Shown here in pieces: positions 7,807 to 61,686 of a stretch of DNA of 64,000 nucleotides. The stretch covers positions 64,001 through 128,000 of the forward strand of contig CAWJQC010000004.1 in assembly GCA_963844965.1 (NCBI GenBank), read 5' to 3'. The notes beneath the pieces were generated by a model. The model did not search any database and had not been told where the DNA came from. It worked only from the letters and a program-made list of their open reading frames with translations. The DNA comes from an uncultured bacterium. GTDB taxonomy: Bacteria; Patescibacteriota; Minisyncoccia; UBA6257; 2-01-FULL-56-20. The position numbers were made by a program, and so were the translations under genes. Each line of letters starts with the position of its first letter. The first letter of the stretch is position 1.

Positions 7807-7882
7807 AATGATAAATTTTCAATTTCCAATTTTCCAATTTCCAAACGTTTGGAAATTCTGAACTTGGAATTATTTTCTCCGT

Positions 7883-15782: not shown

Positions 15783-15896
15783 AAATTTATATTACAACAA
15801 TTTAATTTCTAAGTCCAAGCCCTGAATTAACAGAGAAATTCAAAACCGCCTTTTCGGGCGGCTTTGTTTCTGCGTAATTCCGCGTAGTTCCGCGCT

Positions 15897-21363: not shown

Positions 21364-21371
21364 AAAATAAA

Positions 21372-21758
21372 TTATTTATCTTCTTCAACTTCCGGCAAAC
21401 CTGTTCCGCCTCTCACCCCTTGGCCGCCGCTCTCCACGTAAGACATGGTGACATCGAATGCGTTCCGGAGATAAGGAATTTTGGCGGGACTGCTGTTGCC
21501 TTCCTCTATCTCCGACCAGCTAATTTTGCCTTTTTCCAAAAGAGCGCTCAGAACTTCTATTTTTGATTTGGTGCCGAAATCCAAAACCGTTTCCGGTGGT
21601 GCATAAGCGATGTTTTTACCCTGCCGAAGCGCTTCCAATTCGTGGCGTTTCGCTCGTTCCTTATATTCTTCCAATTTTAATCGCAATTGCTTTACGCGCC
21701 GTCCGTCAGTAGGCAAAACTATCTCTAAACCACTTTTTTCGGCTTCCGGACCTTTCAT
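21372..21758 (-). CDS. Hypothetical protein (128 aa) between rpsG and fusA
   Basis: ORF only; charged and helical. Confidence 0.4.
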   Translation of the reverse strand: MKGPEAEKSGLEIVLPTDGRRVKQLRLKLEEYKERAKRHELEALRQGKNIAYAPPETVLDFGTKSKIEVLSALLEKGKISWSEIEEGNSSPAKIPYLRNAFDVTMSYVESGGQGVRGGTGLPEVEEDK

Positions 21759-31231: not shown

Positions 31232-33913
31232 ATGAGTGGGATAAAAATAAATCTTTCTCTCAGCGAAATCCCAGGCATCGGCCCGCGTTTTCTGGAACGG
31301 CTGGGAAAACTCGGCATAAAAACCGTCCGTGATCTCATTTATCATTTTCCGGCCCGCTACGAGGATTTCTCCCAGATATACAAAATTTCCGACGTTGAGC
31401 CGGGGGAACAGGTAACAATACGTGGCGTTGTTGAAGACACCAAACTGCGGCGGACTTGGAGAAAACACATGACAATCGCCGAAGCCCTGATCCGCGACGA
31501 TTCCGGAACGATACGCGCCATCTGGTTCAACCAACCATATGTTTTGAACACTCTGCGGGTCGGGCGCACGGCGAATTTCGCAGGCAAAATATCCATATCG
31601 GACGAGGACGAAATTTATTTGAGCCACCCGGCTTATGAAATCGTCGGCAGTCGGGAGTCGGGAACGGAGAAGCAAGAAACAAAACATACAGCGCGGCTCG
31701 TCCCCATTTATCCCGAAACGCGCGGCCTCACATCCAAGGGGTTGAGATATCTGATCCAGCCAATTCTGAAAAACAGCGAACAGCTGGAGGAATGGCTGCC
31801 GCCGGAAGTTCTGCGCGAAAATAATTTTCCCGAAATAAACCTTGCGCTCAGATCCATACACTTCCCCGAAAAAACCGAGGATGCTCTTGTCGCGAAAAAA
31901 CGCTTCACTTTTGAAAACCTGTTCCTGCTGCAACTCGCCAATCTTGAACAAAAATTGAAACTCGCGCGCGAAAAAGCGCCAGTGATCAAAACCGACATAG
32001 AACACCTGAAAAAAATGATCTCGGAACTGCCATACGAACTCACGTTTTCGCAAAAGAAATCATTGTGGGAAATCATCCAGGACCTCGCCAAAAAACAGCC
32101 GATGAACCGCCTGCTCCAGGGCGACGTGGGCTCCGGCAAGACGGTTGTCGCGGCGCTCGCCGCGGTAATTACCGCGGAAAACGGGCTGCAGACCGCGTTT
32201 ATGGCGCCAACCGAGGTTCTCGCGAGACAGCATTTTGAAACATTGAAAAAATTATTCGCCGGAATTCCCTCGATCCATCAACCCGTAGTTGGGCTTCTCA
32301 CGTCAAGCGAAGCAAAAATCCTCTACGCGACAGACCTTGAATCAAAAATCAAAAAACCGGAGTTGCAGGAAAAAATAAAAAACGGCGAGGTAAAAATAGC
32401 CATCGGCACGCACGCTTTGATACAAAAAGACGTGGCGTTCGGCAATCTTGCCTTTATCATCATTGACGAACAGCATAGATTCGGCGTCTCACAACGAGCT
32501 GCGCTCGTTCGCGGACAGACGCAGAATGATAATACGCGGACAGACGCTGAACAACTACTATACGAAAAAACGACGTTTGAGATAAGAAAAAGTCTGTTTG
32601 AGGTGAGAAAACAACTGGGCCTTGGTCATAAAGAAGTGGTGTATCAGAAAGCATTGGAGGAGGAGTTCAAGAAATCCGGTGTAATATTTGAGAAAGAAAA
32701 GAAAATTCCTGTCGTTTATAACAAGAAAAAGATTGGCGTTTATCAACCGGATTTTGTCATAGATAATGAAGTAATTTTGGAACTTAAGGCTCTTCCCTTT
32801 ATCGGCGGCATCGAAAAAAAACAGCTGTGGAATTATTTGAGGGGTTCGGATTACAAACTCGCGCTTATGGCAAACTTTGGACCGGAAAGATTATCCATAG
32901 AGCGGGTAGTATACGATATTGCGCGGAGTCGGCGGCTGTCAGCGTCCGGTCAGCAACTGTCCGCGCCTATCCCCCACCTCCTCTCAATGTCCGCCACGCC
33001 AATCCCACGCACGCTCATGCTCACCGTCTTCGGCGATTTGGATATATCGCTCATCACCGAACTTCCCGCCGGCAGAAAAAATATCGTAACAAAAATAATC
33101 CCCCCACGGGGCAGGAGCGAAGCCTATGAATTCATCCGCGGCGAAGTGAGGGCCAGCCGGCAGGTTTTTGTCATCTGCCCCCGCATTGACAAACCGCAGA
33201 CAGGCGCAGACCACACGCAGACAAACGCAGACAAGACACAGACAGACGCAGACAATTTTCAGCGGCTGTCTGCGTCAAGTCAGCGACTGTCCGCGTTAAG
33301 TCCACGTAAGTCCGCGTTAGTGTGGGAAGTAAGATCCGTGAAAGAAGAATTTGAAAAATTATCCAAGAAAATTTTTCCGGATTTGCGCGTCGCCATGCTC
33401 CACGGCCAGCTCAAGCCAAAAGAAAAAGCGGGTATCATGAAGGACTTCCGCAACTACAAAATAGATATTCTCGTTTCAACTTCCGTCGTGGAAGTTGGCG
33501 TGGACGTGCCGAACGCAACAATAATGATGATTGAAGGCGCCGATCGCTTCGGGCTGGCTCAGATCTACCAATTCCGCGGACGCGTGGGGCGCGGCGAACA
33601 CCAATCCTATTGCTTCCTGTTCACGGATTCGTCCGCCAAAACTACGCGCGAGCGGCTGCAGGCCGTCCTTGAAGCCAAGAACGGCTTTGAGCTCGCCGAG
33701 AAGGACCTGAAGATCCGCGGTCCCGGCGAATTCCTCGGCACGGCGCAGACCGGCTTTCCCGACACGGCGATGAGCGGCCTCATGAACCCGGAGCTCGTGA
33801 AAGCAAGCCGCGAAGCGGCGGCAAAAATCGTCCAAAAAGATCCGCTTTTCAAAAATTATCCGCTCCTGAAAACCAAATTAAACGAGTTCCGGAAGGAAAT
33901 CCACTTGGAGTAG
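31232..33913 (+). CDS. recG: ATP-dependent DNA helicase RecG carrying an inserted GxxExxY/PD-(D/E)XK nuclease-like domain (about 32500-32990) and a second short repeat-encoded insert (33180-33310)
   Basis: Wedge/OB N-terminus; helicase motifs GDVGSGKT, DEQHRFG, QxxGRxGR (YQFRGRVGRGEHQSY). Internal segment GHKEVVYQKALEEEF...YQPDFVIDNEVILELKA matches GxxExxY plus D-x(n)-ExK. Confidence 0.85.
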   Translation: MSGIKINLSLSEIPGIGPRFLERLGKLGIKTVRDLIYHFPARYEDFSQIYKISDVEPGEQVTIRGVVEDTKLRRTWRKHMTIAEALIRDDSGTIRAIWFNQPYVLNTLRVGRTANFAGKISISDEDEIYLSHPAYEIVGSRESGTEKQETKHTARLVPIYPETRGLTSKGLRYLIQPILKNSEQLEEWLPPEVLRENNFPEINLALRSIHFPEKTEDALVAKKRFTFENLFLLQLANLEQKLKLAREKAPVIKTDIEHLKKMISELPYELTFSQKKSLWEIIQDLAKKQPMNRLLQGDVGSGKTVVAALAAVITAENGLQTAFMAPTEVLARQHFETLKKLFAGIPSIHQPVVGLLTSSEAKILYATDLESKIKKPELQEKIKNGEVKIAIGTHALIQKDVAFGNLAFIIIDEQHRFGVSQRAALVRGQTQNDNTRTDAEQLLYEKTTFEIRKSLFEVRKQLGLGHKEVVYQKALEEEFKKSGVIFEKEKKIPVVYNKKKIGVYQPDFVIDNEVILELKALPFIGGIEKKQLWNYLRGSDYKLALMANFGPERLSIERVVYDIARSRRLSASGQQLSAPIPHLLSMSATPIPRTLMLTVFGDLDISLITELPAGRKNIVTKIIPPRGRSEAYEFIRGEVRASRQVFVICPRIDKPQTGADHTQTNADKTQTDADNFQRLSASSQRLSALSPRKSALVWEVRSVKEEFEKLSKKIFPDLRVAMLHGQLKPKEKAGIMKDFRNYKIDILVSTSVVEVGVDVPNATIMMIEGADRFGLAQIYQFRGRVGRGEHQSYCFLFTDSSAKTTRERLQAVLEAKNGFELAEKDLKIRGPGEFLGTAQTGFPDTAMSGLMNPELVKASREAAAKIVQKDPLFKNYPLLKTKLNEFRKEIHLE

Positions 33914-36625: not shown

Positions 36626-36859
36626 AATAATTTACTACCTACTACCTACTACCTACCGCTTTTAATTGTTTCGGGGCGACAATCTCATAGCTTTATTATA
36701 TAAGAACAGGGAAAGATATGTAGAAAGGGGTGTGCATAGGCGCGAAAACTGCCCGAGCGGCGGCCGCAAATTTCCCGGCCATCCGGGATATAAAAAAGGC
36801 TCTCGCGAGGAATTGCGAATTGCGAATCCTCACGAGAGCCAAACATACCGGAGGGGAAT

Positions 36860-37567: not shown

Positions 37568-38045
37568 AACGACCTCCTCAAAAAGATTTAATTTAATTGC
37601 GCAAAGCAATTTGGCTACTCCCAAGAATAACCAAATCGCTTTGCGCAAGCAATATATTCATTTTTCAAGATACTTGCCTATCTATGCTAATTATAGCACA
37701 AATAAACAACCTGTCAACCCCCACCTTTTTCCGAAAAGGTGGGGGTCAAGTGGCCGCGGCGGCTGACCCGCTGAAGCGACGATACCCTACAACTCATAAA
37801 TCTCATCTCGCTTGCCTATTTTGAGTATATAAATTGCGCCATTTCTAACGTCAAATACCAACCTATAATCGCCCACGCGAAATCTGAACTCCCCGCCGCG
37901 GTTGTCAGCCAAACGCTTGGCAAACCTCAACGGATTATCCTCTGACGCATAAATGCGCATCTTCTTTGCTTTGCGATGCGCACTTGAACTTCTCTCGGCA
38001 GGGATTCCAACTGCTTAGCCGCCCGCTTGGCATAGAAAATCTTCG

Positions 38046-38222
38046 TTACAATCCCAACTTCTTAAACAGCTTATCCTGCGATATAGTTTTTTTTGCCTTG
38101 ATTTCTTTTCTCGCTTCGCGGACATCCAAAATATGCGCGAGGTAGCCAAGCAGGGCGCCGAAGCGAGCATCCGTTTTCCTCAAACGCTCGTATTCTTGTT
38201 TTGGTATAGTAACCGTGGTCAT
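38046..38222 (-). CDS. Antitoxin-like small protein (58 aa, MTTVTIPKQEYERLRKTDARFGALLGYLAHILDVREARKEIKAKK...), copy 1; its partner toxin is decayed
   Basis: Identical to the antitoxin at 40066..40242. The downstream RelE-like ORF in this copy has lost its ATG (CGT) and carries a 5-nt insertion. Confidence 0.5.
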   Translation of the reverse strand: MTTVTIPKQEYERLRKTDARFGALLGYLAHILDVREARKEIKAKKTISQDKLFKKLGL

Positions 38223-38345
38223 ATAAGTGCATTATAGTAAACCGGCGGCGGATATCAACCCCCACACCAAACGAGGACTTTCCGGGTCCCGCGCCGAAGG
38301 CGCATGTCCTCGTTAGGATTCTCGATAGGAATTGCCGGTGCGACA

Positions 38346-39545: not shown

Positions 39546-39811
39546 CATGTAGCTGTCAACTCCTCTCAACTCCCGAGAAAACCCAGATGGCGAGCTTCTC
39601 CCTGCCTCGATAGGGTAGAAAAACAACTCAAACAGCCCAACGAAATTCGTTGGGCTGGATTTTTTTAACCAATGGCGTCACCCGCCGTTGAATTCCTTAA
39701 TATCTTTTGGCGAACACCGTTTAAACTACCTGTCAACCCCCACCTTTTTTCCGAAAAGGCGGGGGTCAAGCGGCCGCGGCGGCTGACCCGCTGAGCTGAA
39801 GCGACGATACC

Positions 39812-40066
39812 CTACAACTCATAAATCTCATCTCGCTTGCCTATTTTGAGTATATAAATTGCGCCATTTCTAACGTCAAATACCAACCTATAATCGCCCA
39901 CGCGAAATCTGAACTCCCCGCCGCGGTTATCAGCCAAACGCTTGGCAAACCTCAACGGATTATCCTCTGACGCATAAAAGCGCATCTTCTTCGCGATGCG
40001 CATTTGAACTTCTCTCGGCAGGGATTCCAACCGCTTAGCCGCCCGCTTGGCATAGAAAATCTTCAT
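39812..40066 (-). CDS. RelE/ParE-family toxin
   Basis: 84 aa; FYAKRAAKRLESLPREVQMRIAKKM...EFRFRVGDYRLVFDVRNGAIYILKIGKRDEIY, typical RelE/ParE. Confidence 0.7.
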   Translation of the reverse strand: MKIFYAKRAAKRLESLPREVQMRIAKKMRFYASEDNPLRFAKRLADNRGGEFRFRVGDYRLVFDVRNGAIYILKIGKRDEIYEL

Positions 40067-40242
40067 TACAATCCCAACTTCTTAAACAGCTTATCCTGCG
40101 ATATAGTTTTTTTTGCCTTGATTTCTTTTCTCGCTTCGCGGACATCCAAAATATGCGCGAGGTAGCCAAGCAGGGCGCCGAAGCGAGCATCCGTTTTCCT
40201 CAAACGCTCGTATTCTTGTTTTGGTATAGTAACCGTGGTCAT
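40066..40242 (-). CDS. Antitoxin partner of the RelE/ParE toxin (58 aa; stop overlaps the toxin ATG as TAATG)
   Basis: Not in the ORF track (under 60 aa). MTTVTIPKQEYERLRKTDARF...; translationally coupled to the toxin. Confidence 0.55.
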   Translation of the reverse strand: MTTVTIPKQEYERLRKTDARFGALLGYLAHILDVREARKEIKAKKTISQDKLFKKLGL

Positions 40243-40554
40243 ATTAAGTGCATTATAGCAAACCGGCGGCGGATGTCAACCCCCACACCAAACGAGGACG
40301 CGCGCCTTCGGCGCAGGACCCGGAAAGTCCTCGTTTGGTGTGGGGGTAAATTATGCCGAAAAAGCCGGAAGGAAAGATGCGATCTATGTTTCTCCCGCAA
40401 GAATACCCCCGCCGCAGGCGGGGGATGAATTGCGGTTCGAGAAACATAAACCCCGCCGATGGCGGGGTGAACTACCACCTAACATGCTGCATGTGCTAAG
40501 TATTTCGTGCGCAGCACGGCAGTTGAGATACCACCGCTGTGAGGCGGTGGTAGT

Positions 40555-43500
40555 TCATTTCAGAAGAGCGTCAACTTTTTCTTGGAGCGCGGCGTTCTGC
40601 GCCTGAAGAGCGCTGATCTCTTGTTGCTGCTCCTTGATGGATTCTATCATCGGCGCGATAAGCCCAGTATAATCCAGACCAAGGGTTCCGCTCGCGTCAG
40701 TTTCCACCAACTGCGGGAAAACCGTCTGTACATTCTGCGCGGTTAAACCGAGCTGCTCTCCACTGCCCATCAGTTTTGTATCTTTCCATTCAAAGGAAAC
40801 CGGCGTCAGTAACTCAAGCTCCGCAAGCGAACCCGACAGTGGAACTATATTCTTCTTCAAACGCTCGTCGGAGCTATTTATCCACTGCCCAGCATTGTTT
40901 GTATACTCGCCGTGGGCTCCCTGAAAGTCATACGTACTGCCGGAACCATAGACGCCGATTGCAGCAGTTGAAAACACCCCATACCCTGCGGGATTACCGA
41001 AGTATCCAGCGGAACCGTTCGCGCCCGCGGTATCCGAATATCCTTCCACCCCAACCCCAGTACCAGCGTTGTAGCCATAGACGGCGGGAAGACCATTACC
41101 AGTACCGTAGCCATAGACCCCATACCCAGTCGCACCAGCAGTGCCATAGACACCATACATAGAGCCGGTGCCATAAATCCCTGCCCCAGCTTGCCCGGCG
41201 CCACCGACGCTTAATGTTGACGCCGGTGCCGTCGTCCCGATGCCGACGTTGCCGTTCGTGATGGAGAAATATGGACCACCCCCCATCCCAGTGCCAAGCG
41301 CCAAATTGAGGCCATAAGATTGTGACGTCAAATCAGCGTATGTAAATGCTCCGTTGCTGGTGGTGAACTTTATCCAATCTACGTTTGACCCGTTTGTTTT
41401 GTCTAGCCGTAAGGTAGACGTACTTCCACTCTGAATATCAAGTTTTGCGACCGGCGCCGTGTTCCCGATGCCGACGTTGCCGTTCGTGATGGAGAAATAT
41501 GGACCACCCCCCATCCCAGTGCCAAGCGCCAAATTGAGGCCATAAGATTGTGACGTCAAATCAGCGTATGTAAATGCTCCGTTGCTGGTGGTGAACTTTA
41601 TCCAATCTACGTTTGACCCGTTTGTATTGTCTAGCCGTAAGGTAGACGTACTTCCACTCTGAATATCAAGTTTTGCGACCGGCGCCGTGTTCCCGATGCC
41701 GACGTTGCCGTTGTTATTTATAAACAAGGCGGGTGACGCGCCGGATGAGTCAGAACCCTGAGTCAAAAAGGCCATTGGAGAACCGTTACTGCCGATCCGG
41801 GCCCAGTTCGCAACTGCTGCCGGTCCAAGCTGTAGCAAGGCATCGGTACCGTTAGATGTCAAGTCAAACTTGGCGAATTTTGACCCGTTCACGACATGCA
41901 ACGTCGTTGCCGGCGACGCCGTCCCGATGCCGACGTTGCCGGAACCTAAAATTGTCACGAGATCCGTTTTCGAAGAAGCGCCCGTTTTTTCACTAAACTG
42001 GAAAGCGGTGGTGGGATTGTTATAAACATTATAAAAATCAACTTCTGCATTTCCTCCCGTATAATTCCAACCGACGGCCAGACCACCAAGGCCATCACTC
42101 ACCGGTAAAGATTGCGTGTTATATGAAGTTTTCAGGAACCCACCCTCAACATCGAGCTTGTAACCTGGTGCCGCCGTCCCGATGCCGACCGAGCCCGTGA
42201 AATATCCGCCGCCGTAGACGGAAAGCGCCTGCGGACCTACGGCACTGCCCGAAGTGGCAACCGCCAACGAAGAGGAAACGACGACGCTGGCCGGGAAAAG
42301 ATAATTGCCCGTGCTGACAACGTTTGAACCGAAATACCCGGCCGCCACGTTGCTGGCGTTCACGGTGCCACCCGAAGAAGCGCAGTCGGAACCGGTGCCA
42401 GAAACAACGCCCGCAGCGCTTACGTGCAAACACTGGATAGAACCGCTGATTCCAGAAACAGTAAGGGTGTTGGCACTTGCGCCACTGCTGAAAGTTTGAA
42501 GCGCGGTCCAGGTGTTCGCATGTCCAAGATTCAATGCGGCGGACACGGCGCCCGCGGTTGGAGATATCGTTAGAGTTCCGACGCCGCTGTCGCTGACCGA
42601 GGTTACGCTGCCGCCTGCCGCAGACCAAGAAAGCGTGCCAGCGCCGTTGTTCGTGAGCACAGTACTTGCACCGCCTTGCGCGGCCGGCCAGGAATAAGTG
42701 ATACTGTTGATTTTCGCGATGTTGCCGTTATTGTCAACCTGGAATTGACTGCTCGCGCCGACGCTAAAAAGCGACGCTGGCCCCGTCGTCCCGATGCCGA
42801 CGTTGCCGCCCGCAGTTATCCTCATTCTCTCAGCAGCTCCAGCTGAAGTGTCAACCCTAAATATAAGACCATTCGTCGCAGCGCTCGCCTTGACATCTAT
42901 AAACCCTCCCCCAGAAGAATCACTACTGAAAAGTCTCATGCCGTTAACACCGACGCTCGTATCACCTCCAAAGAATAGGTTGCCGTTGACGTTGCCTGCT
43001 GCCATAGGCAAAAGCATATTTGACGTAAGCTGAAGCTGTTGAGTTGGGTTCGCCGTCCCGATGCCGACGTTGCCGCTGAAATACCCGCCGCCGTAGACGG
43101 AGAGGGCCTGCGGCAGATTGCTCGCGGTTGTCGTTGTGATTCCAAGACCGGAAGTGATAAACACGCTGTGGGGAAACCCGTAGGGAACGCCGGAATCGAG
43201 TTGGAGAGAGTTAAACACCCCGGGCGAGATGTTGCCGGCGCTTACGAGACCGCTCACGCTGCCATAAATGGACATGCCGCTGGCGAGATTCACACTGCCG
43301 GCATTAGTAAGATTTGAAGTGCCGATACCGACGGTGCCATCGTTGCGCACGACGAGAAGCGGAACAGCAGAGCCGGGCTGGACAACCTGCAGAGCGAAAT
43401 TTGAGCTGTCGGTTGACGAAGCCACAATCAGAAGCCTCACGTTGGCGGAGGGTGTTGACGTTCCAATGCCCAGATTGCCCGCGGCGTTAACGCTTATCGC

Positions 43501-43680
43501 TCCCGAACCGTAACCGGGAGTGGGAGGAGGAGAAGCAAACGCATAGTAGGTAGTAGGTAGTAGGTAGTAGGTAGTAGCGAGAATGACGAAAAACAAAACG
43601 CGCGGCGCAAAACTCGGACACGCACCGTAAAACTTGCGGCGGAGCTTTTGCTGTTTTTGGAACAAACCTGCGTCCATCAT
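40555..43680 (-). CDS. Giant Sec-secreted fibre-like surface protein 2 (1041 aa) with peptidase-S74-type C-terminal intramolecular chaperone domain
   Basis: Same signal peptide as protein 1; GNVGIGT repeats; in-frame tandem 237-bp (79-aa) duplication at about 41237-41710; C-terminus NSSDERLKKNIVPLSG...GLDYTGLIAPMIESIKEQQQEISALQAQNAALQEKV, the S74 autoproteolysis motif SDxRLK plus a coiled coil. Confidence 0.75.
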   Translation of the reverse strand: MMDAGLFQKQQKLRRKFYGACPSFAPRVLFFVILATTYYLLPTTYYAFASPPPTPGYGSGAISVNAAGNLGIGTSTPSANVRLLIVASSTDSSNFALQVVQPGSAVPLLVVRNDGTVGIGTSNLTNAGSVNLASGMSIYGSVSGLVSAGNISPGVFNSLQLDSGVPYGFPHSVFITSGLGITTTTASNLPQALSVYGGGYFSGNVGIGTANPTQQLQLTSNMLLPMAAGNVNGNLFFGGDTSVGVNGMRLFSSDSSGGGFIDVKASAATNGLIFRVDTSAGAAERMRITAGGNVGIGTTGPASLFSVGASSQFQVDNNGNIAKINSITYSWPAAQGGASTVLTNNGAGTLSWSAAGGSVTSVSDSGVGTLTISPTAGAVSAALNLGHANTWTALQTFSSGASANTLTVSGISGSIQCLHVSAAGVVSGTGSDCASSGGTVNASNVAAGYFGSNVVSTGNYLFPASVVVSSSLAVATSGSAVGPQALSVYGGGYFTGSVGIGTAAPGYKLDVEGGFLKTSYNTQSLPVSDGLGGLAVGWNYTGGNAEVDFYNVYNNPTTAFQFSEKTGASSKTDLVTILGSGNVGIGTASPATTLHVVNGSKFAKFDLTSNGTDALLQLGPAAVANWARIGSNGSPMAFLTQGSDSSGASPALFINNNGNVGIGNTAPVAKLDIQSGSTSTLRLDNTNGSNVDWIKFTTSNGAFTYADLTSQSYGLNLALGTGMGGGPYFSITNGNVGIGNTAPVAKLDIQSGSTSTLRLDKTNGSNVDWIKFTTSNGAFTYADLTSQSYGLNLALGTGMGGGPYFSITNGNVGIGTTAPASTLSVGGAGQAGAGIYGTGSMYGVYGTAGATGYGVYGYGTGNGLPAVYGYNAGTGVGVEGYSDTAGANGSAGYFGNPAGYGVFSTAAIGVYGSGSTYDFQGAHGEYTNNAGQWINSSDERLKKNIVPLSGSLAELELLTPVSFEWKDTKLMGSGEQLGLTAQNVQTVFPQLVETDASGTLGLDYTGLIAPMIESIKEQQQEISALQAQNAALQEKVDALLK

Positions 43681-43735
43681 AATAATTTACTATCTACTAC
43701 TTACTACCTACCACCTACTACCTACTACCTACTAC

Positions 43736-44200
43736 TTACTGCTTCGCAGGCGGTCCCTGGATGGTGCCGCTTGCCACTTGCGAAGGAAGCTGCTGCGAAG
43801 GAAGTTGCTGTCCCGATGACTGAAGCGAAGAAGGGTTGGCGAATGCCTGCACAAGCTGACTGTCGTTGCGCAGGCTCGTCCAGAAAATCACCTGCTTGGC
43901 GTTCAAATGGACCTCGTCAACCGGGCCCCAGAAAGCGTTCTTGAGGGCGGAGAGTCCGAGCTGTGCCTGATTCTGCTGATTGACGCTCCTCTGCAGGAAC
44001 CAGACGTTTGTCAGACGCAGGGACGGGAACCAGCTCAGTTTGCCGAAATAGATATCACCGGTCGTAAGATAGACCGCCGAATACTCGGAAGGGCCAGCCG
44101 GATTTTTGGGAGACATGAGTTTCAAGCCGAGCCACAGGCCGAAAATCAGGACGACGAGCACAATGAGAACCAGGACAGCGATTAATTTTTTGGGCAACAT
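43736..44200 (-). CDS. Membrane-anchored hypothetical protein with Gln-rich C-terminus
   Basis: N-terminal TM LIAVLVLIVLVVLIFGLWLGL; SSGQQLPSQQLPSQ tail. Confidence 0.45.
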   Translation of the reverse strand: MLPKKLIAVLVLIVLVVLIFGLWLGLKLMSPKNPAGPSEYSAVYLTTGDIYFGKLSWFPSLRLTNVWFLQRSVNQQNQAQLGLSALKNAFWGPVDEVHLNAKQVIFWTSLRNDSQLVQAFANPSSLQSSGQQLPSQQLPSQVASGTIQGPPAKQ

Positions 44201-44933: not shown

Positions 44934-45797
44934 TTAGGTACAAGAAACGCTTGAAGTCGCAATCATGCCGCTGCCCGTAATATAAAGCCGATAGCAGGAA
45001 GCACCATTCTTCAGGATTATGCCGGACGCGCTATTGCTTATATATATATCTCCCCCGGCGACCTGAAGCGCCTGCGTCGGCTGCGAACCCATGTTCACGC
45101 CGGCGTAGCCGGTAAAATAAACATTATTTGAGCCGGGTAAGCCGAAATTGAGCACGCCGTTGACGTTACTCCAGTATTGCGTGGCAGTTCCAAGCGGCAG
45201 GCCGGTGGTTGACGATGGAAACACACCGGTATCAAAAGTCGCCGCATTCACGCGCGCAATCGCCGTCTGCAGTGCCTCCGAAAATTGCTGTGTCGCGTTC
45301 TGCGTATTGTTGGCCACAACGAATGAAACGCTCACGGAGTCGTGCCCCGGCGCGTTGGAACGCTTTATAAAAGTGAGGGAAGTAACGTTCACCCTCGGAG
45401 TTGTAAGCGGCTGCGGCGTGCCGGTAGCGGTCTGTTGCAAATATACCGTGCCAGGCGTACCGGAAGACAGATAAATGTAGGTCGGGTCCAACGAACTGGC
45501 TGCCATCCGCAACTTTAGGGTGCTCGTAGCGATATCCTGGTTTAACTCAACAAGACTTGAGCGTTCTATGTAATATTGGATCTGCTGCAACAGGAACTGG
45601 CTTTCTTGGTTCACCTCGGCGGCAGCCGACTGGCGGGATTGGATACGTATGACGGCGACCATCATCGTTATAAACGCAACCATGACTATTGCGAAGATCG
45701 CCGAAAAAGCAAGAAGTTCAATGATGGTGAAACCCTTCTTTGAACGGTAGGTGTAGTAAGTGGTAGGTGGTAAGTGGTAGGTGGTAAATTTCTTCAT
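44934..45797 (-). CDS. Type IV pilin-like / pseudopilin protein with extended heptamer-encoded leader
   Basis: KKGFTIIELLAFSAIFAIVMVAF is the class III signal (G-F-T-x-x-E) plus hydrophobic helix. It is preceded by TTYHLPPTTYYTYRS encoded by a (GGTAGTA)-type heptamer tract. Confidence 0.7.
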   Translation of the reverse strand: MKKFTTYHLPPTTYYTYRSKKGFTIIELLAFSAIFAIVMVAFITMMVAVIRIQSRQSAAAEVNQESQFLLQQIQYYIERSSLVELNQDIATSTLKLRMAASSLDPTYIYLSSGTPGTVYLQQTATGTPQPLTTPRVNVTSLTFIKRSNAPGHDSVSVSFVVANNTQNATQQFSEALQTAIARVNAATFDTGVFPSSTTGLPLGTATQYWSNVNGVLNFGLPGSNNVYFTGYAGVNMGSQPTQALQVAGGDIYISNSASGIILKNGASCYRLYITGSGMIATSSVSCT

Positions 45798-45806
45798 ATT
45801 AACTAA

Positions 45807-46187
45807 TTATAACACTTGGGCGCCTAATGCGCTTATTGCCTTATTTATCATCCACATGATTTCATCTAAATCTTCGGCCAATTTCCTGTATGTTTCGGGG
45901 TTCAAATATTTTAATTCATAGACAATCTCTAACTGAGTTTCCAGCTCTGCGCCGGAACTATATGCGTTTCTCAAAAATTGTAATTTTTCTTTTTTGGAAC
46001 TTCTCCGAAAACCCTCGGCAATATTAGACGGCATAGAAATCGCCGCTCGCCGCATTTGACTTGTTAGACCATATAGTTCCGACGGTGGAAATTTTTCGGT
46101 AACTCCGTATATCAGAACCGCATACGATTTTGTGCGTTTCCAAATGTTCAAATCTCTGTAAGATTTAATGGCTGAATTTTCCGCCAT
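45807..46187 (-). CDS. Four-helix-bundle protein (TIGR02436-like)
   Basis: 126 aa; ...YGLTSQMRRAAISMPSNIAEGFRRSSKKEKLQFLRNAYSSGAELETQLEI..., characteristic of that family. Confidence 0.6.
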   Translation of the reverse strand: MAENSAIKSYRDLNIWKRTKSYAVLIYGVTEKFPPSELYGLTSQMRRAAISMPSNIAEGFRRSSKKEKLQFLRNAYSSGAELETQLEIVYELKYLNPETYRKLAEDLDEIMWMINKAISALGAQVL

Positions 46188-46331
46188 GTCTAAATTCTAC
46201 TATATCATACTACCTACCACCTACTACATACTACTTACCGTGTCCGACCACCTCTCGCGTTTTCGGCGTTACCCAAAAGCGTCGCTCGCCTACGCTCGCT
46301 CCCTCACAACCTCTCGGTTTTGAGTAATTTC

Positions 46332-48005
46332 CTACACGGGAAAACTCCCGTTTTCCCGACCCCTTTCCCTGATTTTGGGCGTCACCCAAAATCCCAACCG
46401 CCATTTCCCTCCCAACATCAATCTGGTCTGCGCTTCAAGACCTGGCAACGCGCCAAAGATTATGAGCGTCAGCGGTATAAAAATCCACTGAAGAAAATAA
46501 ATGAGGTAGTGCCGCGCGCGGAACCAGCGCGGGCGCGGAGGCAAGAGCAGAATACCTAAAATCGCCGAACTTGCGATGCCTATCATGGAAAGCGAGACGA
46601 TGAAACGCGCGACTTGCGGCAGACTGTAAGAAAGGAGCGTGTAGTTGAAACGCCTGCCGCCGATGAACACCGGCAGCCACCCCAACGCGAAGATCATGAG
46701 GGAATTCGTCGCCCAAGAATGGAAACCTTCAAGGATATTGAAGGACCAATACCATTTTTTTCTTTTCGGAATTTCCGGGTCGCGCCGGAAGCCGTCCAGA
46801 AGATACGGAATATTTTCCGCGCCCCATCCCCAGCGCCGCTGTTGCCTGTAGATATTTTTCATCGTGGCCCAGAAAGTCGGCGCCGCGGGCGCGTCCATGG
46901 AAACCGGGTAAAGAAGGGGCTCAACGCGAAAATCGCCGTGATAGTGGAGATAGCACTGCCAAAAAATCCTTGAGTCCTCGGAGACAACGTCCTTATGCCA
47001 AAAACCGACGTCAATCAGCGTTTTCAGGGGAATTGACTGCGAAGAAAAAGAGGTCAGACGTTCCGGGCGCGACTGCTGCATCATCTGCCAGAAGGTTGAC
47101 GAAAAAGAAACGACGCGCGCCAAAGCCGGCGTCTCGTAAACGTTGTTCATGAAAAGCGGCACCGGCTGGTAAATCGCACGCTCGCGATCCTCCGAAGACA
47201 AAAAAACGTAGGCAAGCCGCCCGAAATATTCCGGGAAAACCTGCGTGTCAATGTCAAAAACCGACACTAAGATATTTTCATATCTTAACGCGGACTTACG
47301 CGGACTTAACGCGGAACTACGCGGAAAAACTTCTGCATTAGTCTGCACTTGCCCGCCTAAATTTCCTTCGGAAACTTTGGCGGGTAAATCTGCGTTAGTC
47401 TGCGCATTGACCAATGGGTCAATTATTAATTCTTTGGCGTGTGCCGCCGCCCACGCCTCATTGGAACCTTTGCCGGGAATTTCACCGGCTAAATTCCGCG
47501 GATGGACAGTGACAAGAAACCTGAAAAATTTATCGGCGAATTCTTTTTTTATTTTTTCGGCGACCGCTCTGGCGTCTTCCCCACCCGCTTCCTCCGTCGC
47601 CAGCACGACCAAAAGCTTATCCAGCGGATAATTCACGCGAACCAAGCTCTCAAAACTTCCGCGAACCACTTCATAGGGCTCTTTGTACATCGGAAGAATA
47701 ATAAGGTGATACACTTCCGACCATGACAATGACTTATGACGATGACCGCTCAAATTATTGTTATCGTTATTGTCATTTGTCATAGTCCGCAATTTTTCCA
47801 GCCAATCCACTCTCAGGTTTTTCCTCATCGCCGAAAAAGTTGAGCGCAAGTGCAGAGAGAGATAAATCGTTTTCAGGAGCCAGTAGATGTCAAAGAGTAT
47901 GATAAAAACCGCGACGGCGGCGGGCAGCTTCCACGACAGAAAGACCATCAAAAATAAAGTGAGCCAGGCAAGACCTCCGGGAAGAATTTCAAAAAAACGG
48001 TGCAT
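46332..48005 (-). CDS. Membrane glycosyltransferase family 2 (processive-type, QxxRW motif) with an in-frame repeat-element insert at about 47270-47420
   Basis: N-terminal TMs; LVVLATEEAGGED, FDIDTQ (DxD-like), QQRRWGWG, C-terminal TMs. The insert encodes QTNADLPAKVSEGNLGGQVQTNAEVFPRSSALSPRKSAL. Confidence 0.65.
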   Translation of the reverse strand: MHRFFEILPGGLAWLTLFLMVFLSWKLPAAVAVFIILFDIYWLLKTIYLSLHLRSTFSAMRKNLRVDWLEKLRTMTNDNNDNNNLSGHRHKSLSWSEVYHLIILPMYKEPYEVVRGSFESLVRVNYPLDKLLVVLATEEAGGEDARAVAEKIKKEFADKFFRFLVTVHPRNLAGEIPGKGSNEAWAAAHAKELIIDPLVNAQTNADLPAKVSEGNLGGQVQTNAEVFPRSSALSPRKSALRYENILVSVFDIDTQVFPEYFGRLAYVFLSSEDRERAIYQPVPLFMNNVYETPALARVVSFSSTFWQMMQQSRPERLTSFSSQSIPLKTLIDVGFWHKDVVSEDSRIFWQCYLHYHGDFRVEPLLYPVSMDAPAAPTFWATMKNIYRQQRRWGWGAENIPYLLDGFRRDPEIPKRKKWYWSFNILEGFHSWATNSLMIFALGWLPVFIGGRRFNYTLLSYSLPQVARFIVSLSMIGIASSAILGILLLPPRPRWFRARHYLIYFLQWIFIPLTLIIFGALPGLEAQTRLMLGGKWRLGFWVTPKIRERGRENGSFPV

Positions 48006-54306: not shown

Positions 54307-57104
54307 ATGCCCGAAGAATTTCCTACGCGCTACGACATAAAGGAAGTTGAAACGAAAATCTACGACCTATGGGAAAAGTCTGGGTTTTTCAATCCCGATG
54401 TTTGCGTTGAAAAAGGCGCGACGAAACCGGACGCCGAACCTTTTTCCATCGTCCTGCCGCCGCCGAACGTAACCGGCACCTTGCACATCGGCCACGCCTT
54501 TGAGGACGCGATCCAAGACACCGTTGTCCGCTACGAGCGCATGCGCGGCAAGCGGACGCTCTGGGTTCCCGGGACCGACCACGCCGCCATCGCCACGCAG
54601 GCGAAAGTGGAGGAACTTCTGCGCAAGGAAGGGAAAACGAAATACGACCTCGGCCGGGAGGAATTCCTGCGGCGCGTGAACGAGTTCGCCAAAAATTCTC
54701 ATGACATCATAATCCGCCAGATAAAACGGCTCGGCGCTTCGCTTGATTGGGGCCGCGAGGCATATACGCTTGATGAAAAACGAAATCTCGCCGTCCGCAC
54801 CGCCTTTAAAAAAATGTACGACCTCGGCCTCATTTACCGCGGCGATCGTATCGTGAACTGGGACCCGAAGCTACAGACCACCGTCTCCGACGACGAGGTG
54901 GAATGGATAGACGAAACGACGCCTTTCTACTATCTGAAATATGGGCCGTTCGTCATCGGCACGGCAAGACCGGAAACGAAGTTTGGCGACAAATACGTCG
55001 TCATGCATCCGGACGACGAACGCTATAAAAAATATAAACACGGCGAAAAGATAGAACTTGAATGGATAAACGGGTCGGTCACGGCAACAATTATCAAGGA
55101 TAAGGTCATTGACGTGAATTTCGGCACGGGCGTGATGACAATCACACCATGGCACGACATGACGGACTTTGACATCGCGGAAAGGCATCGCCTGGATAGG
55201 GAGCAGATAATCGACCTGCGCGGCAAACTGCTGCCCATCGCCGGCGAATTCGCCGGAACGCCTATCGCCAAGGCCCGGCCGCTCATTATTGAAAAACTAA
55301 GAACAAAGGGTCTCGTGGAAAAGATTGACGAACATTACGCCCATCGCGTCGCCACGAACAGCCGCGGCGGCGGCCTCATCGAACCGCAGATCCTCAAACA
55401 ATGGTTCGTCAAGGTAAACTCCAAGTTCCAAATCCCAATTTCCAACCTAAAAGGGATAAAAAGCGGCCAAGAGGTGACGCTCAAGGAACTTATGAAAAAA
55501 GTCGTGGAGTCGGGGCAAATAAAAATCATACCCGGACAGTTTGAAAAAATTTACTATCATTGGATAGACAACCTGCGCGACTGGTGCATCTCGCGCCAGC
55601 TTTGGTTCGGGCACAGAATTCCGGTGTGGTATTGCCTCGCCTGCGGCGAGCCGCAAGTTGAACCGAAAATAAAATCGCGATGGTTCCTGGTGCGGCACGG
55701 AGAAACAGACTGGATCAAAGAGGGGCGGCACATGGGACATAAAGAGGTTCCCATGAATGAAACCGGCAAGCAGCAAGCGATGGTAGCCGGCGAACGGCTC
55801 GCAAACGAAAAAATTGATCTGATAATTTCTTCCACCACCATGCGCTGCAAAGAAACCGCCGAAATTATCGCGAAAAAACTGGGTGTCAAAATTATTTTTG
55901 ACGAACGTCTGCGCGAGCGCGGCAGTGGCGAATGGGAAGGACTGCTGCATGCGGAAATCAGGGAAAAATACAAACCTCTGGAGCAAAAATATGGACCGAG
56001 GAGTGGAACAAGCGCGCGCGCTATGAATTCAAACCGCCGGGAGGAGAAAATTGGCTGGAACTTGAAAAGCGCGTAATTCAATCGTTCAAAGAGCACAAAC
56101 TTCGATACGCCGACAAAAATATCGCGATTGTCACCCACGCCGGTCCGATCAGGATCCTGGAAAAAAATCTTAAAAACAAATCATTTGAAGAAGTGGTGGG
56201 ATTAATACCCGAGAATGCCGAGATTGCTAAGCTTTCAATCGCAACTGCTTCCTGTAAAAAATGTGGCAGTGATACTTACGAGCAGGATCCCGATACTCTG
56301 GATACCTGGTTCTCCTCCGCTATGTGGACGTTCTCAACTCTCGGCTGGCCTGAAAAAACCTCCGACCTCAGAACCTACCATCCAACCTCTTTGATGGCGC
56401 CGGGGTATGAAATCCTTTTCTTCTGGGTGGCGCGGATGATACTCATGAGCGGCTGTCTTTTGGGAGAAATCCCCTTCCGCACGGTTTATCTCCACGGCAT
56501 TGTGCGCGACAAGCAGGGCAAGAAATTCAGCAAATCCAGCGGTCACGCGCTTGACCCCCTGGAACTAGCCGACAAATACGGAGCGGACGCCCTGCGCATG
56601 GCTTTAATTGCCGGAGCGGCGCCGGGAAACGACGTGCAATTTGACGAGAATAGGGTCAAGGGCTACAGGAATTTTTCAACCAAGATATGGAACGTAGCGC
56701 GGTTTGTTTTACTAAACAAACCGCCGCAGACAGACGCTGACAAGACGCGGACAGCCGCGGACATTGCTGGCCGACCAGAGATAAAGGAGTTTGAGGCAAT
56801 TAAATCGGAAATAACGAAACATCTTGATGAATACGAACTGCATCTCGCAAGCGAAAAGATTTACCACTACTTCTGGCACACTTTCGCCGACAAAATAATT
56901 GAACAGGAAAAAGCCAACCTGCGGACAGCCGCCGACAAGACGCAGACAGACGCAGACATTGCGAGACGGGCAGAATCCTATGCCCTACTGGGATACATTC
57001 TCGTCGGTTCGCTTAAACTACTCCACCCTTTCATGCCGTTCGTAACAGAAGAGATTTATCAAAAATTTGAACTAAATAAGCTTCTCTTGACCGAAAAATG
57101 GTAA
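54307..57104 (+). CDS. valS: Valyl-tRNA synthetase with an inserted histidine-phosphatase (PGAM-like) domain; 1-nt deletion in an A6 run near 55987-55993 splits it into two ORF-track pieces
   Basis: PPPNVTGTLHIGHA (HIGH), GKKFSKSSGH (KMSKS), VLDTWFSS. Between WYCLACGE and CKKCGSD lies a ~190-aa block: FLVRHGETDW...SSTTMRCKETA...GSGEWEG...AIVTHAGPIRIL, the RHG histidine-phosphatase signature. Frame repair CAAAAATATGG to CAAAAAATATGG restores ...KPLEQKIWTEEW... Confidence 0.85.
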
Positions 57105-57619: not shown

Positions 57620-58297
57620 GTGAGTATTCTGACACTCATCCTCGCTCTTCTTCCCGGCTTCGCCTGGCTTCTTTTTTATCTGGAAGAAGACCTTCATCCG
57701 GAGCCGAAGCGGCTCATCGCCTACACATTTGTGATAGGAATGGCCTCGGCTTTTTTCGCGCTCGCCATAGAAATATTTTTCAAGTCTATTTTCAATAACG
57801 CGGGCGTCGCGGAACTTTCCCTGCTCCCGCTGCTCGTCTTCGCCTTTGTGGAAGAGATCATCAAATTCGGGGCAGCTTACCTGGCCGTTCACAAAAATCC
57901 TGCTTTTGACGAACCGGTGGACGCCATGATCTACTGCGTGGTCGCGGCCCTTGGATTCGCCACCGTGGAAAACATCGGTGCCTTGACCGGCGGTTATTCA
58001 GCGCAAACGGCGCTTTTAAGCCAGGTCTTCGCCGCGACCTCAACCCGATTCGTAGGCGCCACGCTTCTACATTCTCTCGCCTCGGCACTGGTCGGCTATT
58101 ATTGGGCGGTCGGCATCAGGGATATGCGGGTCAAAAAATATGTTCTATGGGGATTGCTCATCGCCACCGTCTTGCACGCCATTTTCAACTATCTTATAAT
58201 TATCTATGGAAACGTGGCCTACGTAGCTGTGTTTCTTTTAGTAATAGGTTTCTTTGTTCTCAGCGATTTTGAGAAATTAAAAAGAAGGTCGATATAA
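57620..58297 (+). CDS. PrsW-family intramembrane metalloprotease
   Basis: Conserved EExxK (VEEIIKFG), FATVEN and HAIFN motifs in TM helices. Confidence 0.65.
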   Translation: MSILTLILALLPGFAWLLFYLEEDLHPEPKRLIAYTFVIGMASAFFALAIEIFFKSIFNNAGVAELSLLPLLVFAFVEEIIKFGAAYLAVHKNPAFDEPVDAMIYCVVAALGFATVENIGALTGGYSAQTALLSQVFAATSTRFVGATLLHSLASALVGYYWAVGIRDMRVKKYVLWGLLIATVLHAIFNYLIIIYGNVAYVAVFLLVIGFFVLSDFEKLKRRSI

Positions 58298-58398
58298 TAA
58301 AAAATTAAAAATTTAAAAATCAAAAATAAAAATGACTGAGTTCGCGAAGCGAACATCTGCATTTTACATTTTGATGTTTACATTTTAAATTTCCTATC

Positions 58399-60014: not shown

Positions 60015-60085
60015 CGGCGGTCAAAAACGGAGTATCGTATAATGGTAGTGCCTGCCGGCAGGCAGGCACATGCATGGCCCAGCAC

Positions 60086-60154
60086 TAAAATTTTCGGGCT
60101 GTAGTATAGCGGCAGTACGCACCCTTGGGGTGGGTGTAGACCGGGTTCGACTCC
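60086..60154 (+). tRNA. tRNA-Pro (anticodon GGG)
   Basis: Acceptor GGGCTGT/GCAGCCC, anticodon arm CACCC-TTGGGGT-GGGTG, T-arm CCGGG-TTCGACT-CCCGG (one nucleotide short, possibly an indel), discriminator G. Its last two nucleotides overlap the start of a 159-bp inverted repeat. Confidence 0.7.
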
Positions 60155-60311
60155 CGGCAGCCCGACATAACGGAACTTGCATCAACTTTTTCAAAATCAA
60201 CGCGCTCGCTTCGCTCGCTGTCTTTATGCACGAGGGGCAAATGGAGAAGCAAATCCGTAACTACTTTCCATTCGTCTTTCCAATCCCAAAAAATTTCCCT
60301 GTCCCGCAGGC

Positions 60312-61686
60312 GGCGGTTCGTTCCGATTTTCCCCGCAAAGGATTTTATGGCGTCGAATTCTTCGGACGAAGCCAGTTTTGCCGCGTGAAACGCGGATATA
60401 ATCCATTCCCGCAATGGTTCGATCCAATAGTTTCCCCTCCGCCCGCAATCATCATTCTGCTTGGACAAGGAAACTTTAGTTTTGATAAGCTCGTCCTTTT
60501 TGGCAAGATAGATTTCTTTTTCAATTGAGCCGTCCAAAAAGGCGTTCACGAGCTTGTCTAATTTCTGCTCGGTTTCCTTGAGTTGGGTTTCGAGATTGCG
60601 GGCGGAATTCTCCGAAGATTGGATGCCTTCTTTTTCCCACGCTTCCACTTGAACCAGCATTTTCTCTTTCCAATCTTCGGGGATGGCGACCTCCGAGATT
60701 TTCTCTTTGAGCTGTTGCACGAGTAAATCTTCGCGCAGATAGCTTTGTGAACACGGGCCAAGCCGTTTCGTACAGCGATAATACTTGTAGAGGCCGCCGT
60801 TCCCTTTCGCGTATTGGGCGGTGATGGCCGCGCCGCACTCGCCGCAGGTGAGCAATCCGGTGAACGGGAAATAATGACGCTTCTTGGAGTGGCGCGGCTT
60901 GGCTTTGTTCCTCAAAACCTCCTGCACTTTCTTGAAGGTCGCCTCGGGAACTATCGGCAGGAAATTGCCGACATAGCTCTCGCCGTTGTGTTTTATCACT
61001 CCGAGATAGGCGGAGTTCGTGAGCATCCGTTGGAGCGTGGCCTTCGGCATGGGATTTCCCGTACCGCTCACGATGCCGAAAAACTGGAAGCGGGCGGCGA
61101 GCGTCTTTAGGGTGTGCCTCCCTTCGGCGTATTCCTCAAAAACTTTTCTGATGATTCTCGCCCGCACGGGGTCGGGTTCGATGTTCCGCGTCTTGGGATT
61201 GTTGAGGTAACCGAAGGGGGCTTTGGTCGGCCACTCGCCGCGCCGCAATTTCTGCCGGATGCCGCGCTTCACGTTCTCGGAAAGGTTATCGCTGTAATAC
61301 TTGGACTGGCCGAAGGCGACCTGCAACATGAAAAGTCCCTGCGGGGTCGGCTCAAACCAGAACGTCGGGAACTTCAGCGAGGCAATCTTCTGGGTATCGA
61401 TGAGGTAGATGATTTGGCCGCCGTCTATGGAGTTGCGAGCCAATCGGTCGGGATGCCACGCCAATATGCCGACGGGTTCTTTGCTCTCGTGAATTTTCTT
61501 GATAAGGTCGCCGAACACTTCCCTGCCCGGACTTTTCGCGCTCTTGCTCTCGATGAAGGTCTCGATAATCTTTATATGTTCCCGTTTAGCGAACTCGGCA
61601 AGCTCCGCGAGTTGGGCTTCAATGCTCATCACCTGCCGTTCCTCGTCCTCGGTGGACTTGCGGGCATAGAGGAAATATGGGGTCAT
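60312..61686 (-). CDS. Large serine recombinase (body; the C-terminus continues into the left IR, and the annotated tail beyond 60153 is read-through antisense to tRNA-Pro)
   Basis: YARKSTEDEERQVMSIEAQ catalytic motif, recombinase domain, zinc ribbon CGECGAAITAQY...YYRCTKR, coiled-coil C-terminus. Confidence 0.8.

Follow-up and report, generated by a model that had tools for sequence, protein, structure and literature searches.

To our knowledge, selfish palindromes that lie in frame within genes have essentially one textbook example, Rickettsia. As far as the work of Ogata et al. (2000, Science; 2002, Genome Res) is summarized in PMC10969869, Rickettsia palindromic elements (RPEs) measure ~100 to 150 bp and lie in frame in unrelated housekeeping genes; the same account describes them as translated into extra segments compatible with the host fold, as also present between genes, and as forming several sequence families per genome. 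In this study, we analyzed a comparable insert in 64,000 nt of DNA (here called the window) from an uncultured Patescibacteriota bacterium (assembly GCA_963844965.1, contig CAWJQC010000004.1, positions 64,001 to 128,000). The insert interrupts the gene of a conserved Patescibacteria membrane protein resembling glycosyltransferases of family 2 (GT2). We consider it probable that the insert is a cargo-less derivative of a family of nuclease cassettes, resembling a MITE (miniature inverted-repeat transposable element), and that its reading frame results from selection for read-through and from inherited phase, not from frame sensing.

The GT2 element is an in-frame palindromic repeat of a kind known from RPEs; more novel is a nuclease domain, apparently mobile, that is found inside many housekeeping proteins. 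Like RPEs, the element is palindromic, in frame and read through, with intergenic copies and several sequence flavors, and with its 123-nt core it falls within the RPE-type range of ~100 to 150 bp and can fold into a long hairpin. Of the known systems, RPEs are the closest analog; the element behaves like one of them, and membership in that group is not claimed. Its host phylum, Patescibacteria, is different; its arms consist of phased 7-nt units with a 21-nt super-period; and it has an autonomous-looking partner with an open reading frame (ORF) for a PD-(D/E)XK nuclease in the host frame. We know of no nuclease cargo reported for RPEs.

Further similarities exist to the intervening sequences (IVSs) of 23S rRNA that contain an ORF of the 23S_rRNA_IVP family (S23p, PF05635) (PMC4990558), which also occur in rRNA genes of the candidate phyla radiation (CPR) (PMC11270868). 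There, too, a small ORF lies between inverted repeats that form a stem, the elements are selfish and patchily distributed, and IVP and GxxExxY ORFs alternate downstream of the GT2 gene. However, IVSs are located in 23S rRNA and are cut from the transcript by RNase III, whereas the GT2 element lies in frame in a protein-coding ORF, is apparently translated, and has no ORF of its own. With MITEs the element shares small size, lack of coding capacity on its own, inverted terminal arms, multiple copies, and a longer, enzyme-carrying relative. In contrast to MITEs, no target-site duplication was seen, periodic arrays take the place of simple terminal inverted repeats, and the longer form at the same site carries an uncharacterized minimal GxxExxY nuclease rather than a known transposase (PMC3424549). 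Inteins and in-frame homing endonuclease genes are likewise selfish, nuclease-encoding insertions in the frame of an essential host protein at the same site in many lineages, but the GT2 element has no Hint or splicing domain, so that the mature protein presumably retains the insert, and the nuclease appears to have been lost from this copy. PARCEL repeats (PMC2996958) were rejected as a candidate, since they are tandem domains of 25 residues in proteins whose function is not known and not insertions in housekeeping genes. The literature searched contained no description of in-frame nuclease cassettes in CPR or Parcubacteria, which is not proof of novelty.

An in-frame insert at a variable site of the GT2 protein

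The host gene (46332..48005, minus strand) encodes 557 amino acids, compared with ~490 to 500 in orthologs without inserts. A search with its product returned 5,537 homologs, several of them named GT2, from sources named as Patescibacteria (Liptonbacteria, Paceibacterota, and Wolfebacteria). The match to Pfam Glyco_trans_2_3 (PF13632) scores 27.0 bits, exactly the gathering cutoff, and this domain, the names of the homologs, and an AlphaFold 2 model with a predicted template modeling score (pTM) of 0.87 agree with a GT2 enzyme, i.e., a GT-A fold with membrane helices. The original prediction of an in-frame repeat in this minus-strand gene was borne out at the DNA and the protein level: 47284-47405 contains the quoted plus-strand sequence, and the ORF reads ...LIIDPLVNAQTNADLPAKVSEGNLGGQVQTNAEVFPRSSALSPRKSALRYENILVS... 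across the element (with flanks, ...LIIDPL-VNAQTNADLPAKVSEGNLGGQVQTNAEVFPRSSALSPRKSALR-YENILVSVFD...). Read-through of the elements in the window would yield peptides such as QTNAEVFPR, SSALSPR, or VSEGNLGGQVQTNAEVFPR. According to ortholog alignments and the translation, the inserted cargo-less palindromic heptamer-array element occupies 47283..47411 (-), and its 43 codons (VNAQTNAD...KSALR; 129 nt) replace three codons such as GLD in empty orthologs.

The state of the site was scored between the motifs IIDPL and YxxILVS in an alignment of 120 GT2 orthologs. Of these, 87 have only three residues (e.g., P0004 and P0005); 8 have an insert that shows the arm peptides but no cargo (among them P0001, which is the query, P0002, P0003, P0008, P0036, and P0043), 5 have a full GxxExxY/PDDEXK_3 domain of 157 to 163 residues between the same arm peptides, and 20 have palindromic inserts of other sequence flavors (e.g., P0026, P0031, and P0007). 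The five cargo-bearing orthologs (P0006, P0027, P0037, P0073, and P0114) read VNAQTxAD.TQTNAE-[GxxExxY]-YDTAR..RKSALSQRxSAL, and PF13366 was detected in each. At the DNA level, the cargo-bearing loci L001 and L048 contain four copies of CGCAGAC, a nuclease ORF without start or stop codon, and four copies of GTCNGCG; L004, L125, L126, and L127 are cargo-less relatives, and the number of heptamer units differs between orthologs. P0035, which belongs to the cargo-less group, retains only a 7-residue scar, VNASALS. A PF13366 or TIGR04256 domain between the arms, which defines the cargo-bearing cassette, is present in the orthologous copies and in a copy in recG but not in the GT2 copy of the window. 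The nearest relatives of the query display every state (empty in P0004, short in P0003, and cargo-bearing in P0006), and 13 orthologs carry this flavor, for which parsimony on a neighbor-joining (NJ) tree, which is crude, required 13 changes.

The AlphaFold 2 model, calculated with the 120-sequence alignment, reached an overall predicted local distance difference test (pLDDT) value of 85.8. Residues 201 to 240 of the insert have pLDDT values of 43 to 58 and lie between helix 179-205 and strand 245-249, with flanks at 95 to 97; in the model, the insert sits in a low-confidence, predicted disordered loop. Alignment and model agree with the proposal, made from the sequence, that the element is inserted in a loop. 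Two further insertion hot spots in GT2, one after WLxKL and one after ENIPYLL, behave alike. The first of these holds in the window a second small palindrome, ATGAC/GTCAT, at 47730..47790 (-), with the peptide NDNNDNN..GHRHKSLS, and holds different GxxExxY cargo in some orthologs; residues 81 to 90 of the window's protein have a pLDDT of 56.

Heptamer arrays and folding of the element

A heptamer scan resolved the GT2 element into four CGCAGAC-type heptamers followed by four inverted GTCCGCG-type heptamers. Their order on the sense strand is CGCAGAC-taa-CGCAGAT, a 33-nt hairpin, TGCAGAC-taa-TGCAGAA, and TTCCGCG-tag-TTCCGCG-ttaa-GTCCGCG-taa-GTCCGCG, and the start-to-start spacing is 10/11/10/11/10 nt, 10 plus 11 nt giving 21 nt, i.e., seven codons. 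In the 5' arm, the two outer units (CGCAGAC and CGCAGAT on the sense strand; 47388..47404, minus strand), recognized by ortholog comparison, encode AQTNAD, and the inner two (TGCAGAC and TGCAGAA; 47331..47347, minus strand), recognized by the scan and ortholog comparison, encode VQTNAE. The 3' arm found by the scan (47289..47326, minus strand) comprises four GTCCGCG/TTCCGCG units spaced by 10/11/10 nt (CGCGGAC twice and CGCGGAA twice on the plus strand) and encodes PRSSALSPRKSAL.

The hairpin CCCGCC-(21 nt)-GGCGGG (47352..47384, minus strand), which encodes (L)PAKVSEGNLGG, is not central but nested in the 5' arm, where it separates unit 2 from unit 3. The original prediction had treated both arms and this hairpin, described as central, as one shared element. 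The arms are indeed shared, but no second copy of the hairpin was found within the window, the recG copy has no such hairpin, and ortholog L125 carries a different palindromic piece at the same position; the hairpin was therefore rejected as a feature of the family.

The minimum free energy of the GT2 element is -50.8 kcal/mol for the sense and -58.0 kcal/mol for the antisense strand, with z values of -6.2 and -8.1, respectively, relative to shuffled sequence. The fold z-scores and the absence from most orthologs show that the element is not a product of chance. Selection of an RNA on the antisense strand was considered, since two copies in the window fold better in this direction, and was rejected: 18 in-ORF elements display no consistent asymmetry (11 favor antisense and 7 sense, with a mean difference of 0.7 kcal/mol).

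Related elements in the window and nuclease cassettes elsewhere

Further elements are located in recG (31232..33913, plus strand), the ORF of which contains ...SALSPRKSALVWEV. The peptide ALSPRKSAL is common to GT2 and recG on opposite strands, as noted in the original prediction. A 30-nt arm segment (33290-33319 versus 47286-47315; repeat I22) is 97% complementary on the plus strand and near-identical on the two sense strands, and therefore the GTCCGCG-type arm is the 3' arm on the sense strand in both genes despite their opposite orientation. The cargo-less sister element in recG (33190..33321, plus strand; 132 nt) has six CGCAGAC-type and six GTCNGCG-type units and encodes PQTGADHTQTNADKTQTDADNFQRLSASSQRLSALSPRKSAL. 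A full-length sister element is found at 32505..32968 (+), with CGCNGAC arms at 32505-32556 and 32925-32968 around an in-frame GxxExxY/PDDEXK_3 domain (32558-32914). This domain, bracketed by CGCNGAC and GTCNGCG arrays, matches PF13366 (E = 8.5e-28) and TIGR04256 (E = 2e-31) and lies in frame between the two helicase lobes, at the same place as in the relatives L004, L229, and P0127. In the closest relative, L004 (recG at 19881-21590), a palindrome of another heptamer (ACxCGAA / TTCGGGT) is found at the position of the cargo-less element; either the site is reused by different flavors or the arms evolve in concert.

Two solo CGCNGAC arrays lie in the gene of valyl-tRNA synthetase (ValRS). One, with four units in the region of the anticodon-binding domain (56722..56765, plus strand), is in canonical phase (defined below) and encodes PQTDADKTRTAADI; the other (56917..56960, plus strand), encoding LRTAADKTQTDADI, is a direct repeat (D11) of the first, which lies 195 nt upstream. 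Both take the place of variable loop residues and alter the net length little. An intergenic half array of CGCGGAA, CGCGGAA, and CGCAGAA (15866..15896, minus strand) directly follows the stop codon of rpsJ and precedes a terminator-like hairpin.

Outside the window, CGCNGAC/GTCNGCG arms flank in-gene nuclease domains in recG (L004 and L229) and LepA (L121 and L188). The same arms flank GxxExxY genes that stand alone, each having a ribosome-binding site and start codon of its own, on a viral contig (L251) and at the Desulfobacterales loci L029 and L074, and more distant GxxExxY cargos are associated with other heptamer flavors (CCGAAT, GCGAAT, GCGAAA, and GGTTCAT). A word-indexed protein search with the nuclease domain gave three matches; relatives were collected by an exhaustive HMMER search, in which the recG domain yielded 6,738. 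Among the best 30, 27 exceeded 200 residues and had the domain in an internal position. Pfam analysis of 20 relatives identified housekeeping hosts throughout: RecG (eight), Wzy_C, GT4, and LepA (two each), and RtcB, GT2, GatB, LeuRS, AsnB, and an EF-Tu-type GTPase (one each). The catalytic motif GxxExxY...D...ExK is conserved in the embedded copies, and the fold is PD-(D/E)XK.

Viral contigs L248 to L252 contain free-standing GxxExxY ORFs between heptamer arrays of several flavors (CGCAGAA / TTCTGCG in L251), and phages may be carriers of these cassettes between hosts. The content of the intergenic slot downstream of GT2 varies: L004 has nothing there, L001 and L003 have an IVP ORF, and L126 has a PDDEXK_3 ORF that stands alone. 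In the window, a 23S_rRNA_IVP ORF encoding a four-helix bundle (45807..46187, minus strand) is flanked by inverted tandem arrays of 7-nt units, GTAGGTA / TACCTAC (45753-46238).

Palindromes at the insertion junctions

Both ends of the GT2 insert form small palindromes with the host sequence. At the left junction, ATTGAC-CCATTG-GTCAAT (I D P L | V N; 47406..47423, minus strand), the first 6 nt of the insert are an inverted copy of the host codons for Ile-Asp. This palindrome is kept in L004, L126, L127, and L001 and is absent at the empty site of L003. The right junction, TAAGATAT-GAAA-ATATCTTA (L R Y E | N I L; 47268..47287, minus strand), has conserved host coding sequence as one half; it is identical in L004 and L126, and the variant AAAATAT-GAAA-ATATTTT of L001 preserves pairing. 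Such palindromes with one half in conserved host coding sequence were found in GT2 and at loci L121, L188, L200, L229, and L162, and the LepA junctions form 13-bp stems. Stems of at least 7 bp occurred in 18 of 92 junction windows (20%) compared with 42 of 1,193 control windows (3.5%), the boundary calling being crude. The junction palindromes could be the footprint of a hairpin intermediate or reflect a preference for palindromic targets.

Phase and orientation of the elements

The original prediction stated that the element always has the same orientation and frame relative to its host ORF, implying either selection for translatability or a frame-aware insertion mechanism. We scanned for the DNA pattern in two ways that are independent of gene calls and tallied the phases in low-GC contigs. 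In-frame read-through occurs in unrelated genes, namely, GT2, recG, and ValRS in the window and more than 30 other host genes in metagenomes. Altogether, 35 long ORFs read straight through an array; one IscS ORF has a canonical and a mirror copy, so that the phase counts sum to 36. The canonical phase (QT/AD and SA/SxR) was found in 26 ORFs, ten of them checked with Pfam, among which are a class I aminoacyl-tRNA synthetase, an enzyme of the poly(A) polymerase family, SecD/SecF, a GyrA C-terminal domain, GAPDH, enolase, and UvrC. Six ORFs have the mirror phase (RG/QT and SLR/VC; IscS twice, TrmD, MnmA, UvrB, and MgtC), and four have the third phase (AD/RR and VC/SA; P-type ATPase, ATP synthase gamma, 6PGD, and GatB). 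According to Pfam, every host of a noncanonical copy is a real gene. Furthermore, many metagenome copies lie between unrelated genes. Constancy of orientation and frame, as originally claimed, is therefore refuted. Four candidate ORF pairs for genes split by out-of-frame copies, a sign of RNA excision, were rejected as unrelated neighboring genes.

Selection for translatability, in contrast, is supported. The cargo-less copies in GT2 and recG are free of stop codons in only two of six frames, and five full-length cargo copies, including the one in recG, in exactly one, the nuclease's own. This single open frame means that any surviving intragenic cargo-bearing copy fixes the canonical phase for its descendants. 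Also, the alternating 10- and 11-nt spacing was found in 14 of 14 Patescibacteria arrays, compared with 6 of 112 in other non-actinobacterial loci and none of 39 in actinobacterial loci; arrays in Desulfobacterota and other phyla almost always have 10 + 10 or 11 + 11 nt. With a period of 21 nt, the only readings of the heptamers are (T)QT / (N)AD and (K)SA / S(L,P,Q)R, and the Patescibacteria arrays are therefore never in the Arg-Arg / Val-Cys phase. The cargo-less element of recG is in canonical phase on the antisense strand as well, and the orientation of a cargo-less palindrome is nearly undefined.

A site-specific or frame-aware insertion, in which the element or its nuclease recognizes particular sequences and integrates in one codon register, like a homing endonuclease gene, would agree with the canonical bias (26 of 36; p = 2e-6 versus one third), the presence of one flavor at the same GT2 codon in 13 non-sister orthologs, the junction palindromes that copy the host flank, and the flanking codons, which read (R/S/K)YEN in occupied alleles and resemble xYKK in empty ones. 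We nevertheless regard such a mechanism as unlikely. All three phases occur in real genes, even canonical and mirror copies within one IscS ORF; intergenic copies exist, including the one after rpsJ; and at least six unrelated repeat flavors occupy the same GT2 codon position, which points to a structurally permissive loop and not to sequence targeting. Stops in the remaining frames are enough to account for the survival of one frame. The canonical bias is explained by these stops, by inheritance of the nuclease frame, and by the 21-nt period, and no frame-sensing mechanism is needed. Frame awareness resides in the architecture of the element through selection and not in the insertion step.

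Proposed origin of the GT2 insert and other explanations

The cargo-less-derivative reading can be put as a sequence of events. The full cassette would consist of a CGCNGAC heptamer array, a GxxExxY (PD-(D/E)XK) nuclease ORF, and an inverted GTCNGCG array. In Patescibacteria, the cassettes would have lost their own start and stop codons and reside in housekeeping genes, where permissive surface loops hold them as insertions that are read through. We infer that a cargo-bearing copy entered the GT2 loop of an ancestor, or that an occupied allele was acquired by recombination, and that the nuclease ORF was later deleted between the arms, of which the scar VNA|SAL in one ortholog may be a trace. 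Palindromes are prone to deletion. The remnant would persist as a translated, harmless, hydrophilic linker of 40 residues, and the uniform frame in the window would reflect purifying selection for read-through and, largely, inheritance of the phase of the nuclease ORF. As a working guess, the cassettes may move by nuclease-driven homing or by hairpin-mediated insertion, with the phased heptamer arrays as putative binding sites of the nuclease. Two observations may hint at the mode of movement, namely, the junction palindromes and the raised third-codon-position identity between the window and L004 inside the element, which suggests constraint on its DNA or a younger age.

Several points weigh against this scenario. 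Mobility is deduced from comparisons, as is the cargo loss at the GT2 site from orthologs, and the NJ tree is crude; horizontal allele replacement would produce the same patchiness. Translation of the insert is a prediction from the sequence. The GxxExxY family is listed as of unknown function (PMC3424549) and is without demonstrated activity. No direct target-site duplication is visible at the GT2, recG, or LepA junctions, where short inverted copies of the host flank are found instead. In ValRS, the copies consist of solo direct arrays that have no partner arms, and they fit array expansion or decay better than MITE insertion. Finally, the canonical bias could include a mechanistic component.

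More tentatively, the GT2 insert may be the relic of an undescribed selfish class, consisting of read-through GxxExxY nuclease cassettes with helically phased heptamer arrays in loops of Patescibacteria housekeeping proteins. Such cassettes would depend on the host for expression within the host protein, their 21-nt period would have evolved to make the binding-site arrays translatable, and they would spread by homing or by insertion through a hairpin intermediate that leaves inverted copies of the target flank.

The insert might also have been domesticated by the host, the loop peptide or an mRNA hairpin serving GT2 in translation regulation or as an interaction linker. Third-codon-position identity between the window and L004 is raised in the element (79% versus 55% gene-wide; binomial p = 0.013), which suggests DNA-level constraint or a younger age; the arm peptides are conserved across divergent orthologs, and insertions of the RPE type have been suggested to supply raw material for the evolution of proteins (PMC10969869). 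We find domestication improbable, since 87 of the 120 orthologs are without an insert, presence is patchy with many unrelated flavors at the site, the region is predicted to be disordered, and the same element occurs in unrelated genes and intergenic DNA.

A mature GT2 protein without the insert would result if the paired arms were cut from the transcript and the ends religated, or if the insert left the protein like an intein. The arms do form a long interrupted RNA stem, and the related 23S_rRNA_IVP cassettes are known from excised rRNA intervening sequences (PMC4990558, PMC11270868). An excised insert, however, needs no open frame, yet every in-gene copy of the Patescibacteria type in the DNA-pattern scan is read through, and the coding-compatible 21-nt period is specific to Patescibacteria. 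Rfam analysis revealed no intron or ribozyme: at gathering thresholds, the window contains only tRNAs and a fluoride riboswitch, and a permissive scan of 47150-47550 gave only sub-threshold chance matches. Pfam detected no intein or Hint domain, finding only Glyco_trans_2_3 in GT2 and only helicase domains plus PDDEXK_3 in recG. Removal of the insert is thus very improbable. Purely local expansion of a tandem or palindromic repeat in a fast-evolving loop, with convergence between genes, would suit the ValRS arrays and the variable unit numbers but can scarcely be credited given near-identical 30-nt arm segments in two unrelated genes, the recurrence, across phyla, of the same arms around a conserved nuclease ORF, be it in GT2, recG, LepA, or a free-standing cassette, and cargo-bearing, cargo-less, and empty states at one site.

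With the cargo-less derivative as the preferred reading, the locus represents a second, independent system of in-frame palindromes, in the reduced genomes of Patescibacteria and with a candidate autonomous partner that RPEs lack. If correct, this would explain many annotations of proteins of 600 to 900 residues as "GxxExxY protein" and much of the variation in length among CPR housekeeping proteins, would offer a tractable test for the function of the abundant, uncharacterized GxxExxY (PF13366) and 23S_rRNA_IVP (PF05635) families, and would show that DNA signals of a mobile element can be reshaped into translatable form. For annotation, such inserts should be masked in protein alignments and trees of these phyla.

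Further features of the window

The ValRS gene is split by a frameshift into the overlapping ORFs 54307..56076 and 55932..57104 (+). Its core contains an inserted histidine-phosphatase domain (His_Phos_1), an architecture that L004 shares in one intact ORF of 887 amino acids; a class I synthetase in L132 also has His_Phos_1. Similarly, rpsJ, encoding ribosomal protein S10 (~15897-16200, minus strand), is readable only across two frames owing to a one-base frameshift. The two frameshifts suggest either indel errors of the assembly or real pseudogenization.

AT-rich arrays of the ATTTTnAnTTT type that repeat every ~10 nt, some of them mutually inverted, are present at 3238-3340, 3917-3996, 6177-6252, 7803-7857, and 58293-58399. 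They sit between genes of the ribosomal-protein operon (near S8, S3, and S19) and upstream of an HSP20 gene and may be another cargo-less flavor of the same kind of array. A 42-nt repeat (21193-21234 and 46328-46369; 98% complementary) encodes the last 12 residues of GT2 and its stop codon in one copy, lies beside an unrelated gene in the other, and represents a separate small repeat family.

Perfect inverted repeats of 159 nt (60163-60321 and 62050-62208), 1.7 kb apart, are found around the ORF of a large serine recombinase (60085..61686, minus strand) beside a tRNA-Pro gene and could delimit an invertible segment or an integrated element. Two very large ORFs (34826-36657 and 40555-43746) share long internal repeats with a CCCGATGCCGACGTTGCC motif every ~228 nt, and a block of ~0.6 kb is duplicated 2 kb apart (37718-38317 and 39738-40347; 91 to 98% identity). 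The fluoride riboswitch (Rfam RF01734; 47.8 bits) is located at 62655-62716 (+).

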